Positions 1-4,690 of a stretch of 4,820 bases of DNA are shown here, one piece after another. Within the stretch, counting starts at the first letter, position 1. Each line of letters opens with the position of its first letter. The stretch lies in IMG/VR virus record IMGVR_UViG_2690316148_000012. One strand, given 5' to 3'. This DNA is from a virus (lineage: Duplodnaviria; Heunggongvirae; Uroviricota; Caudoviricetes). Made by a program: the position numbers and the translations under genes. Under the pieces are notes generated by a model. That model did no database searches. It had not been told where the DNA came from and saw only the letters and a program-made list of their open reading frames with translations.

Positions 1-155
1 CCTCAAAAACACCATCATACACTAAATCAGTAAGTTGGCAGCATCACCGAAGTGGTAAAGAAGATAATAAAGAATAATATTTAGGGTTATAGGTCTTAGC
101 CCATTTTAAATGGAAGGCAGACATGCAGCCATGCATACTTCGCATGGCAACATAA

Positions 156-584
156 TTATTTAGACAAACTATCTAATTTTTGCGTCGCTTTTTGTGTTAG
201 GTCGCTGTAACTGATAAACCCTACGTTAGCACCTACAATTAACACTAAGAACACTAAGCTGCATATGGATAGAGTGGCAGATTTATGCTTATGGAAAACA
301 AAATATGCTACTATTGCACTTAATATGAAGGAAATGAATAGAAATATAGATGTTGATGTTTTTAGATATTTTTCAGGAAATAATGGGTGAGCAATAATGT
401 ATACAAGATTAAGTAGTATATAAATTGCTACCGGAATGAAAATCATGCTCCAGTGTGTATCTTTTTTGGGAGGGATTGGCTGCAAATAATCAGACACCGT
501 TTTTCCATCAGTTTCAAGAAGAATTACTAGATCTCTTACTTCACCACTGACTTGAGTGCCATCCTTAGTAGTAATGTTAATCAT
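156..584 (-). CDS. hypothetical small membrane protein, 142 aa; ~45-aa hydrophilic N-terminal domain followed by three predicted transmembrane helices; second gene of the two-gene operon
   Basis: Part of ORF track 156..641 (-). Start placed at the internal ATG 584..582 (MINITTKDG...), which has a GGAGGG Shine-Dalgarno 5 nt upstream (minus-strand TATTTGGAGGGAAAAAATG) and overlaps the upstream stop as ATGA. Three hydrophobic stretches: SMIFIPVAIYILLNLVYIIAHPLF, SIFLFISFILSAIVAYFVF, LSICSLVFLVLIVGANVGFISY. Basic loop HKHK between helices 2 and 3. Confidence 0.6.
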   Translation of the reverse strand: MINITTKDGTQVSGEVRDLVILLETDGKTVSDYLQPIPPKKDTHWSMIFIPVAIYILLNLVYIIAHPLFPEKYLKTSTSIFLFISFILSAIVAYFVFHKHKSATLSICSLVFLVLIVGANVGFISYSDLTQKATQKLDSLSK

Positions 585-958
585 TTTTTCCCTCCAAATA
601 CGATGCCCTCTACGTCTTTGGAAGCTTTTTGTGATGACCACTCCTCTGAATCAGGTGATTTAATTAAAAATATTGTATCTCCATCAAAAATCGTATTTGT
701 TCCGTAAAAATTCACATTTGATAGATCACCACCAAAAACCCTCTGCCCACTCGAGGTAATTGCCTCACCTAATTTAGTAAAATTACCAGCAATAGATGAT
801 TTTCTTTTTCCACTTCTATTCAAAGTGGCTTTAATTACACCACCACCATCCTTAGAGTTAAATAATTGAATGTCCACTCCAGCAGTTGGTTGTATATATT
901 TTGAAAGCTCTTTCTTGAACTTGTTAATATATTTATCTTTGTTTTCTTTGTTGGTCAT
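581..958 (-). CDS. hypothetical protein, 125 aa, soluble, Lys-rich N-terminus and Gly-rich body; first gene of an AT-rich two-gene operon; family not recognised
   Basis: ORF track 581..958 (-). Starts MTNKENKDKY at ATG 958..956 with no obvious Shine-Dalgarno. Ends GGKK*, and its TGA (583..581) overlaps the ATG (584..582) of the next gene. No hydrophobic segment or signal peptide by eye. Hand-counted G+C is far lower than in the neighbouring nin genes. Confidence 0.6.
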   Translation of the reverse strand: MTNKENKDKYINKFKKELSKYIQPTAGVDIQLFNSKDGGGVIKATLNRSGKRKSSIAGNFTKLGEAITSSGQRVFGGDLSNVNFYGTNTIFDGDTIFLIKSPDSEEWSSQKASKDVEGIVFGGKK

Positions 959-1130
959 TGGTTAGATCCATAGTTCTGGCTGTGATTAGGTGAAAGTATA
1001 CAAGGTTTTTAAAGCGAAGATCACTGTTTTGGCTTCAAGATAGTTTTGATTTATCGTAATCAATCCGCCATAATCCTCTCATCGGAGCCTGAACAACTCC
1101 GGTGACTTCTGCGCATTTAAGGGGACTTAA

Positions 1131-1226
1131 ATGCGACCACAATCTGAACTCATCACCTTGTCACAGATGCAGAAATGCACCTGCGATTTTCTGCATTCTG
1201 CGGTTTCCGTTAGGGAGGCCGTATGA
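1131..1226 (+). CDS. small ORF, 31 aa (MRPQSELITLSQMQKCTCDFLHSAVSVREAV), possibly the ylcH-like small protein found upstream of ybcN in DLP12-type prophages
   Basis: Hand translation, too short for the ORF track. An in-frame TAA sits immediately upstream (1128-1130). AAGGGG lies 6 nt before the ATG. Its stop TGA (1224-1226) overlaps the ybcN ATG (1223-1225). Identity with ylcH is from memory of gene order and approximate size only. Confidence 0.35.
   Translation: MRPQSELITLSQMQKCTCDFLHSAVSVREAV
1167..1196. repeat. inverted repeat ATGCAGAAA-N12-TTTCTGCAT (9-bp perfect arms) inside the small ORF just upstream of ybcN; possible operator or weak terminator/attenuator
   Basis: Arms at 1167-1175 and 1188-1196 pair perfectly. 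Followed by TCTGCGGTTTCCGTT, only moderately T-rich. Confidence 0.3.
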
Positions 1227-1678
1227 CTCTGCCAGTAGACGGCATCAAACTCCATCGCGGTAACTTCGCGGCCATCGGCCAGCAGATTCAGCCATTGCTG
1301 GATGCCGGGCAATGCTTACGCCTGCAGGTTAAGCCGTGGCGCGAGAAGCGCAGCCTGTCGCAGAACGCGCTCAGCCACATGTGGTACACGGAGATCAGCG
1401 AATATCTCATCGCCCGCGGCAAGACCTTCGCTACGCCTGAGTGGGTCAAAGACGCGATGAAGCACACCTATCTCGGCTACGAAAGCAAAGACCGTGTAGA
1501 TGTCGTGTCCGGCGAGGTCACCACCGTCCAATCCCTCCGCCATACGTCAGAGCTGGAAACCGGCGAGATGTACATCTTCCTGTGCAAAGTCGAAGCCTGG
1601 GCGATGAATATCGGCTGCCACCTGACAATTCCGCAGAGCTGTGAATACCAGCAGCTGCGCGATAAGCAGGAGGCGTAA
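1223..1678 (+). CDS. ybcN: YbcN-family prophage protein (DLP12 nin region; reported DNA base-flipping protein), 151 aa
   Basis: ORF track 1223..1678. Protein MTLPVDGIKLHRGNFAAIG...QLRDKQEA matches my recollection of E. coli YbcN in length and sequence. AGGGAGG Shine-Dalgarno at 1212-1218. Followed by ninE, ybcO and rusA in the canonical order. Confidence 0.85.
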   Translation: MTLPVDGIKLHRGNFAAIGQQIQPLLDAGQCLRLQVKPWREKRSLSQNALSHMWYTEISEYLIARGKTFATPEWVKDAMKHTYLGYESKDRVDVVSGEVTTVQSLRHTSELETGEMYIFLCKVEAWAMNIGCHLTIPQSCEYQQLRDKQEA

Positions 1679-1848
1679 TGGCTACACCGCTTATTCGTGT
1701 CATGAACGGGCACATCTACAGAGTATCAAATCGTCGTAAGCGTAAGCCTGAGCTGAAGCCATCCGAAATACCAACACTGCTCGGATATACCGCTAGCCTG
1801 GTTGATAAAAAATGGTTGCGACTGGCAGCAAGGAGGAATCATGGCTGA
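1678..1848 (+). CDS. ninE: NinE-family protein, 56 aa
   Basis: Hand translation: [56 protein letters not shown]. The ATG (1678-1680) overlaps the ybcN stop TAA (1676-1678). AGGAGG at 1668-1673. Below the ORF-track length cutoff. Position between ybcN and ybcO fits the DLP12 order. Confidence 0.75.
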   Translation: MATPLIRVMNGHIYRVSNRRKRKPELKPSEIPTLLGYTASLVDKKWLRLAARRNHG

Positions 1849-2131
1849 TTTGAGAAAAGCAGCGCGTGGTCGGGAATGCCAGGTAAGAATCCCTGGCGTA
1901 TGTAATGGCAATCCTGAAACGTCAGTACTGGCACATATCCGGCTGGCTGGATTGTGCGGTACCGGTATCAAACCGCCAGACCTGATTGCCACCATTGCAT
2001 GTTCTGCCTGTCACGACGAAATCGACCGCCGCACATATTTTGTCGATGCTGAGTATGCAAAAGAATGCGCGCTGGAAGGTATGGCGAGAACGCAGGTTAT
2101 CTGGCTGAAAGAGGGGGTTATTAAGGCGTGA
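1841..2131 (+). CDS. ybcO: YbcO-family prophage protein (DUF1364, putative Cys-rich metal-binding nuclease), 96 aa
   Basis: Part of ORF track 1802..2131. Start placed at the internal ATG 1841 ([23 protein letters not shown]...), which has AGGAGG at 1831-1836 and gives the 96-aa size I recall for YbcO. Overlaps the ninE stop (ATGGCTGA). Multiple Cys (CQV, GVCNG, CGTG, CSACHDE). Confidence 0.8.
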
Positions 2132-2490
2132 ATACCTACAGCATCACATTACCCTGGCCTCCGAGCAATAACCGCTATTACCGCCATAATCGCGGGCGCA
2201 CACACATCAGCGCAGAAGGGCAGGCATACCGCGATAACGTCACCCGAATCATTAAAAACGCAATGCTGGATATCGGCCTGGCTATGCCAGTGAAAATCCG
2301 TATTGAGTGCCACATGCCGGATCGCCGTCGCCGTGACCTGGATAATCTGCAAAAAGCCGCTTTTGACGCACTCACCAAAGCAGGTTTCTGGCTGGATGAT
2401 GCTCAGGTCGTTGATTACCGCGTTGTGAAGATGCCTGTTACCAAAGGTGGGAGGCTGGAACTGACCATCACCGAAATGGGGAATGAATGA
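2128..2490 (+). CDS. rusA: RusA Holliday-junction resolvase (crossover junction endodeoxyribonuclease), 120 aa
   Basis: ORF track 2128..2490. Protein [37 protein letters not shown]...[11 protein letters not shown] matches my recollection of E. coli RusA. GTG start overlaps the ybcO stop (GTGA). Acidic clusters DRRRRDLDN and WLDDAQ are present, consistent with the known catalytic Asp residues. Confidence 0.85.
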
Positions 2491-2627
2491 TGTTTGAGTT
2501 TTATATGGCAGAACTTCTTCGCCACCGCTGGGGGCATCTGCGCTTATATCGTTTCCCCGGTTCTGTTTTGACCGATTACCGAATACTGAAGAATTACGCC
2601 AAAACCCTGACAGGAGCAGGAGTATGA
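2487..2627 (+). CDS. ylcG: YlcG-family small protein, 46 aa
   Basis: Hand translation: [46 protein letters not shown]. The ATG (2487) overlaps the rusA stop (ATGAATGATG context). Below the ORF-track cutoff. Position between rusA and quuD fits the DLP12 order. Confidence 0.65.
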
Positions 2628-2712
2628 AGTCAGAGATAACAATCAACTAATACTGTTTTGTTGATTTTTGCTTGTAATTGGCGTTCTGGTCTGATTTTTG
2701 TGGAGTAAGTTG

Positions 2713-3096
2713 ATGCGTGATATTCAGATGGTTCTTGAGCGTTGGGGAGCGTGGGCGGCTAATAATCATGAAGATGTGACCTGGTCGTCCATTGCCGCCG
2801 GTTTTAAGGGATTAATTACTTCAAAAGTAAAATCTCGCCCGCAATGTTGTGACGATGACGCGATGATTATTTGCGGGTGCATGGCCCGTCTGAAAAAGAA
2901 CAACAGCGATTTGCACGATTTATTAGTAGATTATTATGTAGTCGGTATGACATTCATGTCACTGGCAGGTAAGCATTGCTGCTCTGATGGTTATATCGGG
3001 AAAAGGTTACAGAAGGCTGAGGGCATAATTGAAGGGATGTTAATGGCATTAGATATCCGGTTAGAGATGGATATCGTTGTTAATAACTCTAATTAA
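2713..3096 (+). CDS. quuD: Q-family late-gene antitermination protein, 127 aa
   Basis: ORF track 2698..3096, which begins at a TTG. I prefer ATG 2713 ([22 protein letters not shown]...), which has GGAG at 2702-2705 with 7-nt spacing. Cys-rich ([19 protein letters not shown]), consistent with a Zn-binding Q antiterminator. Located just upstream of a hairpin/terminator region, as expected for Q. Confidence 0.8.
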
Positions 3097-3129
3097 TATG
3101 CCAATTGTTTACTAAAAATTATTAAAAAT

Positions 3130-3147
3130 GGGGCGTTGCAACGCCCC
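3130..3147 (-). terminator. perfect 18-bp palindrome GGGGCGTTGCAACGCCCC flanked by A/T tracts; candidate rho-independent terminator for the convergent porin gene, possibly bidirectional
   Basis: The sequence is its own reverse complement (GC-rich stem, TGCA loop). On the - strand it is followed by ATTTTTAATAATTTTT (from + 3113-3129), a U-rich tract. On the + strand it is followed by CAAAAATAAA, so it is a poor + terminator. Confidence 0.4.
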
Positions 3148-3284: not shown

Positions 3285-4367
3285 TTAGAACTGGTAAACC
3301 ATACCTACAGCAACGATATCATCGGTAGCAACGCCAGATGCTTTCGTGAAATCGCTCTTATCAATCAGGTTGATTTTGTAATCAACAAAAGTGGACATAT
3401 TTTTGTTGAAGTAATAGGTTGCACCTACATCAATATATTCAACCAGGTCCTGATCACCCCACGCACCCAAGTCTTTTCCTTTAGATTGCAGGTAAGCAAC
3501 GGACGGACGCAGACCGAAGTCGAACTGATATTGTGCAACTACTTCGAAGTTTTGTGCTTTGTTGGCAATATGGTTATTACCAAAAACAGTCATGTTCTGG
3601 GTTTCAGAATAGGTGGTAGCCAGATAGATGTTGTTCGCATCATATTTCAGACCAGCTGCCCATACTTCAGCATTTTGACCAGATGCATTCAGGCTGTTGT
3701 TACCGTAGATAACCTGATTATTAGTGCGGTCAGATTTAGCATAGGTTGCACCTACACCGAATCCTTCATACTCATAAGTAGTGGAGAAACCGAAACCATC
3801 ACCATTAGCTTCAGTTACGTCAGTGCGGTCATTTTTACCCTGATACTGAGCAGCAAAGTTCAGACCATCAACCAGACCAAAGAAGTCGTTGTTACGATAA
3901 GTTGCAACACCAGTGGTGCGACCAGTCATGAACACATCTGTTTGAGTCCAAGTGTCACCACCGAATTCTGGCAGGACGTCAGTCCACGCACCGATGTCGT
4001 ATGCTACACCGTAGTTACGGCCGTAATCGATGGAGCCGTAGTCACCGAATTTCAGGCCAGCGAAGGCAAGACGGGTTTTATCTTTGGAGGAACCTTGAGA
4101 TTCAGCGCGGTTGCCTTTGAATTCATATTCCCACTGACCGAAACCAGTCAGTTGATCGTTGATTTGGGTTTCACCTTTGAAGCCAAGACGGGCATAAGTA
4201 GTATCACCATCATCTGCATCATTAGAGGAGAAGTAGTGCTTAGCATTAACTTTCCCGTACAGATCCAGCTTGTTACTGTCTTTATTATAAATTTCAGCTG
4301 CCTGAGCAGACATCGCCATCAGTACTGATGCAGCTACAGCAGAAATTGCCACTGTTAATTTTTTCAT
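3285..4367 (-). CDS. nmpC: general diffusion porin of the OmpC/OmpF/PhoE family (nmpC-type prophage-borne porin), precursor ~360 aa with an N-terminal signal peptide
   Basis: ORF track 3285..4427 (-). Start placed at the internal ATG 4367..4365 ([29 protein letters not shown]...), a typical signal peptide with an AQA-A cleavage site. Mature N-terminus [16 protein letters not shown] is porin-like. The C-terminus ends ...VGMVYQF, with the terminal Phe characteristic of outer-membrane beta-barrels. Convergent position after quuD fits DLP12. Confidence 0.8.
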
Positions 4368-4571
4368 CGTGAGCCCTTTTTTTGAACTATTATTAAAAAA
4401 TGATGTCACTGCGCGATAAATATTCATCTAATCAATGTGATTATTTCAAGATGTAAGTTTTGGTTTCTCGTTTGATTTGTGAAGTAGATCTCTATTTTTA
4501 TCTGAACTTTTTTCTATCGAATCCTATTCATGGCTCTTGGCTGAATAAAAATAAATCTATTAGCCAATTTA

Positions 4572-4690
4572 NNNNNNNNNNNNNNNNNNNNNNNNNNNNN
4601 NNNNNNNNNNNNNNNNNNNNNNNNNNNNNNNNNNNNNNNNNNNNNNNNNNNNNNNNNNNNNNNNNNNNNNNNNNNNNNNNNNNNNNNNNN
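4572..4690. other. run of 119 N (masked or unresolved sequence) in the AT-rich region upstream of the porin gene
   Basis: Literal n characters in the input. The two ORF-track entries spanning it (4460..4744 + and 4528..4755 -) are artefacts of translating N as X. Confidence 0.99.

Follow-up and report, generated by a model that had tools for sequence, protein, structure and literature searches.

Two small, overlapping genes on the minus strand of a 4,820-nucleotide stretch of viral DNA (IMG/VR record IMGVR_UViG_2690316148_000012; the whole stretch is called the window here) form a cassette that is mobile accessory cargo from an uncharacterised protein family. The window corresponds to the nin/Q/porin part of an Escherichia coli prophage, lambdoid and DLP12-like, and the two genes, termed gene 1 and gene 2, encode a soluble protein of 125 aa and a membrane protein of 142 aa, respectively. 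Judged from its relatives, the gene pair is much older and more widespread than E. coli. Our tentative preference, held at somewhat less than an even chance, is that the pair is a mobile module of a sensor and a membrane effector, of either the abortive-infection or the toxin-antitoxin (TA) type. The case for a defence or toxin function is circumstantial; on that reading the cassette would be a conflict module of two components, one of them a membrane effector, drawn from protein families that no defence catalogue used here contains.

Architecture and expression signals of the cassette

Gene 1 occupies positions 581-958 on the minus strand and starts with ATG. Gene 2 lies at 156-584 on the same strand, its 142 aa being counted from the ATG at 584, while the mechanically called open reading frame (ORF) reaches back to a GTG at 641. 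The stop codon of gene 1 and the start codon of gene 2 overlap as ATGA (581-584), which suggests translational coupling of the two genes. A GGAGGG Shine-Dalgarno sequence for gene 2 (590-595, minus strand; CCCTCC on the plus strand) is located 5 nt 5' of its ATG, within the end of gene 1, and is kept in a copy of the cassette with 76% identity (L033). An earlier note on this DNA, made without database searches, had described an AT-rich two-gene operon on the strand opposite to the phage genes, with an ATGA overlap and a GGAGGG site for gene 2. The ORF listing, the sequence and the GC profile bear out this description: GC is 0.32-0.37 over window positions 100-1000 (about 34% for the cassette), compared with 0.52-0.60 over the nin genes at 1100-2400.

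Upstream of gene 1, a putative -10 element, TATACT (5/6 matches), lies at 995-1000 on the minus strand, approximately 37 nt from the gene 1 ATG. The same hexamer is present in locus L031, and TATGAT stands at the aligned position in L033. Downstream, a stem-loop of the form GCCAUGC-N7-GCAUGGC (128-148, minus strand) begins 8 nt after the gene 2 stop codon; its stem is conserved and its loop variable in cassettes of 92% and 76% identity. No U-tract follows this stem-loop, which thus may be either a terminator or a stabiliser of the mRNA end. Homology across three diverged aligned cassettes covers the TATACT-like element, both genes and the 3' stem-loop. The element and the stem-loop would bound an autonomous transcription unit, the promoter assignment being weak. 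A search for RNA families in window 1-1300 with Rfam, in which type I and type III antitoxin RNAs were sought, gave zero matches.

Properties of the two proteins

Gene 1 corresponds to RefSeq WP_000182282.1 and gene 2 to WP_000608370.1, both annotated as 'hypothetical protein'. The gene 1 product is basic (isoelectric point 9.5) and has no hydrophobic segments in a Kyte-Doolittle scan, while the same scan places three such segments in the gene 2 product, at 47-65, 79-97 and 106-124; the pairing of a soluble with a three-transmembrane (3-TM) protein proposed earlier is thus sound. Near-invariant positions of the gene 1 family are Y10, L22, G39, F84, G86, T87, K100, W107 and D115. In the AlphaFold2 (AF2) model of gene 2, helices span residues 44-68, 71-100 and 103-141, and the soluble N-terminal stretch of about 36 aa is modelled as a beta-hairpin followed by a helix. 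The loop between TM2 and TM3 is basic (HKHKS), the C-terminal tail is short, and the TM helices carry small-residue packing motifs such as GANVG. Hydropathy and the positive-inside rule predict an N-in/C-out topology for this protein.

Homologues of both genes with 63-92% identity are found in Enterobacter, Klebsiella and E. coli. Comparison with the 92%- and 76%-identity copies of Enterobacter and Klebsiella type gave ratios of nonsynonymous to synonymous substitution rates (dN/dS) of 0.07-0.09 for both genes, with dS reaching about 2. Both genes are under purifying selection, and gene 1 has evolved more slowly than gene 2. This series of homologues, together with the low dN/dS values, indicates that the two genes are real.

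Distant relatives and conserved pairing

A hidden Markov model of the gene 1 alignment was searched exhaustively against 1.84 billion representative proteins. It recovered 111 relatives at E<=1e-3, equivalent to about 111 clusters at 50% identity, nearly all of which are 120-135 aa in length and match over their full length. Genomic context was examined for 22 lineages. In 20 of these, the next gene encodes the same kind of membrane partner (123-154 aa), recognised by an N-terminal motif, MK(I/V)GxxEGTxEE(V/I)xD(L/F), three hydrophobic segments and a basic TM2-TM3 loop. Of the other two lineages, one has a different partner with two TM segments and one is apparently degraded. Most of the distant pairs also retain the 4-nt overlap between gene 1 and its partner. 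The E. coli-type and distant partners align with an hhalign probability of 85.6% (E 5.6e-6, 108 columns). A conserved third gene was also sought around the pairs, and none was common to them.

The hosts include Gamma-, Beta- and Alphaproteobacteria, Bacteroidota (Chryseobacterium), Cyanobacteria (Synechococcus), Nitrospirota, Acidobacteriota, Desulfobacterota-type bacteria and Planctomycetota. The pairs from a Nitrospira metagenome-assembled genome (MAG) and from Neptuniibacter are 92% and 89% identical in their two proteins, and in 11 of 13 loci the flanks are richer in GC than the pair itself. These near-identical pairs and the low GC are signs of horizontal transfer, although contamination of MAG bins has to be borne in mind.

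One further relative, P0013 (127 aa, from a 1,145-bp ENA contig), is composite. Its N-terminal part consists of pentapeptide repeats (PF13576, PF13599, PF00805) and is joined at DLSNVNF to a C-terminal part identical (100%) to the last 50 residues of gene 1; it may be a recombinant or an assembly chimera.

Family and database searches

Neither protein matched a Pfam or NCBIfam family; at E<=1, Pfam-A returned weak, sub-threshold matches confined to the TM segments. Profile searches of the PDB gave no match, and when 78 gene 1 relatives were scanned against Pfam, the few matches were scattered and attributable to chance. PADLOC-DB v2.0.0 contained no model matching either protein of the window pair or any of four proteins encoded by distant versions of it. 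This release was the defence catalogue used for comparison, newer catalogues and the prophage screen of Brenes and Laub (2025) lying outside it. The two genes have, nevertheless, been listed before: gene 1 is phrog_18061 (E 9.3e-85 over residues 1-125 of 125) and gene 2 is phrog_16940 (E 2.3e-96 over 1-142 of 142), both annotated as 'unknown function' in PHROGs. Therefore, the earlier statement that neither protein can be assigned to a known family holds for Pfam, NCBIfam, PADLOC-DB and the PDB, but the description of the pair as unrecognised was too strong.

The supplements of the DefensePredictor paper list neither accession, and a literature search found no paper naming either accession or PHROG identifier. 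Searches of the INPHARED phage collection at the DNA and protein levels found no copy of the cassette. A gene 2 homologue carries the label 'VIT1/CCC1 family predicted Fe2+/Mn2+ transporter' in one automated source, for which Pfam offers no support.

Occurrence in E. coli and the slot between P and ninB

The 1-kb cassette is rare: of 5,426 complete E. coli genomes, 46 carry it, each as a single copy in the chromosome, with identities of at least 99%. The host prophage lies at argU, the DLP12 site, in strain A7, and at icd, with a different repressor region, in strain A24. In 18 IMG/VR loci the pair is always found between the replication gene P and ybcN/ninB, on the opposite strand, within mosaic flanks (identities of 69-100% for ybcN and of 41-100% for the O-like gene). 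In other genera, the versions with 92% and 76% identity occupy this same position. In other lambdoid prophages the P-ybcN interval is filled by ren and small same-strand ORFs, or by other genes, and it is thus a variable cargo slot rather than core content. E. coli K-12 provides one example: its DLP12 prophage was described in the earlier note as holding different cargo, correctly, since the gene order there is renD, emrE, ylcJ, ybcK, ybcL, ybcM, ylcH, ybcN. Comparison of the locus across related prophages accordingly shows that the pair is not invariant core content, and the proposal that it occupies a moron position as a mobile, variable cassette is borne out by its presence in 46 of the 5,426 genomes and by the different fillers of the same slot. 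The HepS defence gene of the Salmonella prophage Gifsy-1 was recently located in a comparable post-replication slot, in which, according to the same paper, lambdoid prophages often encode accessory genes (PMC13043305).

Gene 2 appears damaged in two of the IMG/VR loci. In L030 (8375-8799) its match is broken in two, as would result from a stop or frameshift at about codon 52, and in L022 (8401-8799) the match begins at residue 10 and no P gene follows. A second variable slot is located beside the repressor; it holds DUF4411 and ImmA/IrrE metallopeptidase genes in A7 (L001, 9874-11522) and genes for two hypothetical proteins in A24 (L002, 6946-8496).

Carriers, neighbours and a nuclease fusion

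In addition to lambdoid prophages, the pair is carried by an unrelated prophage, close to its lysis and terminase genes, and by a Chryseobacterium prophage that also encodes a Bro-N/BstA_C (BstA-like) protein. Another carrier is a 4.8-kb mobilisable plasmid with a Replicase/PriCT rep gene and MobC/relaxase genes, on which the pair lies directly 3' of rep and overlaps its end. This plasmid subfamily was encountered in Klebsiella, E. coli and Salmonella, on over 200 short contigs; a tblastn search of PLSDB found no copy of it, though the plasmid backbone is common there. The idea that the pair replaces a RelE/ParE TA module of sibling plasmids was dropped, as the annotation places that module in another slot. 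In one sibling Col-type plasmid (L042, K. pneumoniae NZ_CP055165.1, 1600-2326), the rep-to-mobC slot contains an unrelated, unannotated coupled pair, comprising an 89-aa CxxC...CxxC protein (zinc-ribbon-like) and a 154-aa protein with two hydrophobic segments.

Several copies are situated near TA genes or recognised or candidate defence genes. One islet contains BrnA, a Gp49/HTH pair, GNAT genes and an insertion sequence (IS), with PD-Lambda-3_B (E 6e-83) directly after the pair. A second has PIN and DUF4160/DUF2442 genes near the pair, and a third locus has an Xre-MbcA antitoxin. A PDC-M14A-like gene and the gene for a DrmD-like SNF2 helicase (E 9e-204) come after the pair on a Nitrospira MAG contig (L043, 8846-13859), as does PDC-M49A (E 3e-275) on a Syntrophaceae MAG contig (L046, 1236-4107); both loci may be small defence islands. 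Overall, defence or candidate-defence genes were found within about 5 kb in L015, L036, L043 and L046, and TA genes in L006, L015 and L040. These are raw counts, so the association is suggestive only.

A different arrangement is seen in P0104 (447 aa), in which a full gene 1-like domain (residues 1-120) precedes an HNH nuclease domain (Pfam E 1.3e-12), the fusion replacing the membrane partner. The HNH domain resembles that of McrA (BLASTP E 8e-10; PDB 6ghc, E 3.5e-5). Gene 1 itself does not resemble the McrA N-terminal domain (hhalign probability 0.2%). Effector swapping is typical of defence sensor domains, and a domain joined either to a membrane protein or to a nuclease may be read, by analogy, as behaving like the sensor or adaptor of a conflict system.

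Proposed mechanism

Under the preferred reading, gene 1 would encode a small cytoplasmic alpha/beta protein that serves as the sensing or regulating subunit, and gene 2 an inner-membrane effector in which a short N-terminal mini-domain on the cytoplasmic side precedes the three TM helices. Translational coupling would supply the two proteins in fixed proportion. In the lysogen the pair is probably transcribed from its own promoter, antisense to the early-right operon, as suggested by its orientation and a weak promoter match. The gene 1 protein may bind the cytoplasmic N-terminal domain of the gene 2 protein and thereby keep it inactive, until a phage-derived cue, or the loss of a labile gene 1 partner, frees it. 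The freed protein would then oligomerise and permeabilise or depolarise the inner membrane, and this breach would halt the infected cell before the incoming phage finishes its cycle. The logic would be that of RexAB-like abortive infection or of a TA system, with unrelated proteins. Once the resident prophage is induced, rightward transcription from pR, to which the cassette is antisense, would oppose the pair and could silence it, so that the resident phage could be spared.

A broader version of this scheme is put forward with still more reserve. Here the pair would belong to a phylum-spanning conflict family, in which a new alpha/beta sensor is combined with interchangeable effectors, usually the 3-TM partner through its N-terminal mini-domain and occasionally a fused McrA-type HNH nuclease; the E. 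coli version would be an abortive-infection system that prophage early transcription switches off.

Weighing of the evidence and alternative explanations

The earlier note had pointed out that a small soluble protein paired with a small membrane protein inside a prophage is a pattern common to defence, exclusion and toxin modules. In favour of such a function are the pairing across phyla, the carriage by prophages, a plasmid and islets, the HNH fusion, the patchy distribution and the low GC, the last two being as expected of horizontally transferred cargo. Several observations weigh on the other side. The searches of PADLOC-DB, Pfam, NCBIfam and the PDB were blank, the neighbours in 12 chromosomal loci are mostly housekeeping genes, only a minority of loci have a recognised defence gene within about 5 kb, and the HNH fusion is found on two short contigs only. 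The fold of the supposed sensor is also poorly defined: the AF2 models of the two proteins are of low confidence (predicted local distance difference test scores, pLDDT, of 58.5 and 67.7), having been built from shallow alignments of 9 and 16 sequences, and fold searches on both returned generic matches only, so that these searches are uninformative. No good -35 lies near TATACT, and a consensus promoter scan did not report this element, hence the weakness of the promoter assignment. Further, in E. coli CV839-06 (L055, locus 1557-3136; one of the 46 genomes), IS1A splits gene 1 and leaves a 49-aa N-terminal remnant, while gene 2 is intact in spite of this natural knock-out of gene 1. An unchecked membrane toxin would be lethal in this strain if it were still expressed. 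The IS, however, separates gene 2 from both the promoter and the translational coupling, and owing to this polarity the disruption is uninformative on toxicity.

The layout of the pair is also that of a classic type II TA operon, with two small genes, the soluble one first, and a 4-nt overlap, and this raises the possibility of a pure addiction module, in which a labile protein antitoxin (gene 1) and a membrane toxin (gene 2) would together stabilise their carrier without sensing phages. The position of the pair as cargo just 3' of, and overlapping, rep on the 4.8-kb mobilisable plasmid and the presence of other TA genes near several of the loci are in line with this. The explanation is nonetheless rather unlikely: no DNA-binding antitoxin domain is recognisable in gene 1, an HNH nuclease fused to a gene 1-like domain suits a sensor or adaptor better than an antitoxin, and gene 1 has been naturally disrupted beside an intact gene 2 in CV839-06, though polarity could explain that case. 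Many TA systems also defend against phages, and this alternative therefore overlaps with the sensor-effector module favoured here. A role outside conflict, with gene 1 regulating a small channel or transporter and the pair serving membrane homeostasis, ion balance or stress as lysogenic-conversion cargo, would agree with the mostly housekeeping neighbours of the chromosomal copies, with the lack of any match to a defence model and with the VIT1/CCC1 label given to one gene 2 homologue. The pair is, however, very sparse and phylogenetically scattered, with near-identical copies across phyla and GC below that of its flanks; it travels on prophages and a small plasmid and has one nuclease-fused relative, and the transporter label lacks support in Pfam. 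We consider such a role unlikely.

Superinfection exclusion is quite improbable as well. It would have the 3-TM protein anchor its soluble partner at the site of DNA entry, so that injection is blocked without killing of the cell. Systems of prophages and phages that block entry are well known (SieA/SieB, HK97 gp15, T4 Imm/Sp), and the cassette is prophage-borne, has a membrane component and is probably expressed in the lysogen. The example of SNIPE, moreover, demonstrates that defence can act at the injection site (PMC13190303). Many copies of the pair are nevertheless chromosomal or plasmid-borne, and their hosts belong to phyla that differ greatly in envelope and phages; a host-autonomous effector fits this better than a block tied to a single injection route, and the HNH-fused relative has no membrane part. 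Control of the prophage's own lysis by a holin-like 3-TM protein and a cytoplasmic regulator is by far the least plausible of the explanations. The gene 2 product does resemble class I holins in being a small protein with three TM segments, as is generally known of that class, and the pair is within a few kb of endolysin genes in two unrelated prophages. Against this, the lambdoid pair lies about 3 kb upstream of the S/R/Rz homologues and is antisense to both the early and the late operons, the prophages concerned have their own holin, essD, copies occur on plasmids and at non-phage chromosomal sites, and the predicted N-in topology with a cytoplasmic N-terminal domain differs from that of class I holins.

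Comparison with known systems

By analogy, the module would work most like RexAB and the gp30/gp31 pairs of mycobacteriophages, while being laid out like a type II TA operon. RexAB of phage lambda (for RexAB-type systems see, e.g., PMC12894663) is likewise a two-gene prophage cassette, expressed in the lysogen as the present pair probably is, which encodes a cytoplasmic protein and, in the inner membrane, a small polytopic one (about 140 aa). The logic proposed here, in which a sensor triggers a membrane effector and the membrane potential collapses, would also be shared. No sequence or profile similarity to RexAB was found with Pfam or PADLOC. RexA is a protein of about 279 aa and RexB has four TM segments, and the Rex genes are located in the immunity region, where they are co-transcribed with cI. 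By comparison, gene 1 encodes 125 aa, gene 2 has three TM segments and a predicted cytoplasmic N-terminal domain, and the pair is sited between P and ninB, antisense to pR. In the mycobacteriophages Sbash and Butters, gp30 and gp31 are soluble and small membrane proteins of the prophage that jointly exclude heterotypic phages; they belong to orphan families, are encoded near the immunity and early regions and act in actinobacterial hosts. The present pair, compared with them by description only, is unrelated in sequence (no PADLOC match) and differs in TM number and size.

Similarity to type II TA modules lies in the two small genes overlapping by 4 nt, with the soluble one first, in carriage on plasmids, prophages and TA islets, and in a patchy, horizontally spread distribution. 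Neither in the two proteins nor in the 78 gene 1 relatives was a helix-turn-helix, ribbon-helix-helix, AbrB or Phd antitoxin domain found, and no known toxin fold is present. Membrane toxins of known systems such as GhoST are much smaller peptides than the gene 2 protein. McrA, a type IV HNH restriction enzyme from prophage e14, has the same plan as P0104, an N-terminal module of about 125 aa followed by a McrA-like HNH domain; the module of P0104 is, however, gene 1-like and not the McrA DNA-binding domain, and the window pair has no nuclease. Class I holins have three TM helices in an N-out/C-in orientation and are encoded in the lysis cassette beside the endolysin gene. Gene 2 shares the three TM segments but is about 3 kb from essD/rrrD, on the opposite strand, and is predicted to be N-in. 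HepS provides a parallel in location, being a defence gene in an accessory slot just 3' of the replication genes of a lambdoid prophage, but it is a single HEPN RNase without a membrane partner and has no homology to the pair (PMC13043305).

Should the pair prove to act in defence or as a toxin, it would bring two new protein families together in a compact system of about 0.8 kb, one family being a possible sensor domain that is also wired to a nuclease, and the P-ninB slot of lambda-like prophages would be a place to look for such cargo, as in Gifsy-1. The pair spans many phyla without an entry in Pfam, NCBIfam or the defence catalogue, and its annotation would resolve a recurring pair of 'hypothetical proteins'. 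Being only 125-145 residues long and having a defined partner, such a membrane effector would also lend itself to studies of gating in small membrane proteins. The cassette is thus a good and inexpensive candidate for experiments, albeit an unsurprising one, as new small defence systems are found often.

Other features of the window

Positions 1-48 of the window match, at 48 of 48 nucleotides, what we take to be the 48-nt terminal inverted repeat of IS1. From the uninterrupted locus (L001, coordinate 14950), the insertion point lies 29 nt before the end of the replication gene P. P is therefore truncated, and the window prophage is probably replication-defective. To the right of the cassette, a ylcH-like mini-ORF of 32 codons (1128-1226, plus strand) overlaps the start of ybcN/ninB (1223-1678, plus strand). 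Two terminator-like hairpins (1168-1203, plus strand) lie within this mini-ORF, just 5' of ybcN, and could be a tR2-like terminator of the early-right operon. The genes ninE, ybcO, rusA, ylcG and quuD are found on the plus strand of the same window.

A run of 119 N at 4572-4690, 5' of the porin gene, is either an assembly gap or a masked stretch, and the ORFs listed across it were discarded as artefacts. The porin gene itself, of the ompC/nmpC type (3285-4427, minus strand), is intact in the window, whereas the copy in K-12 DLP12 (nmpC) is split by IS5.

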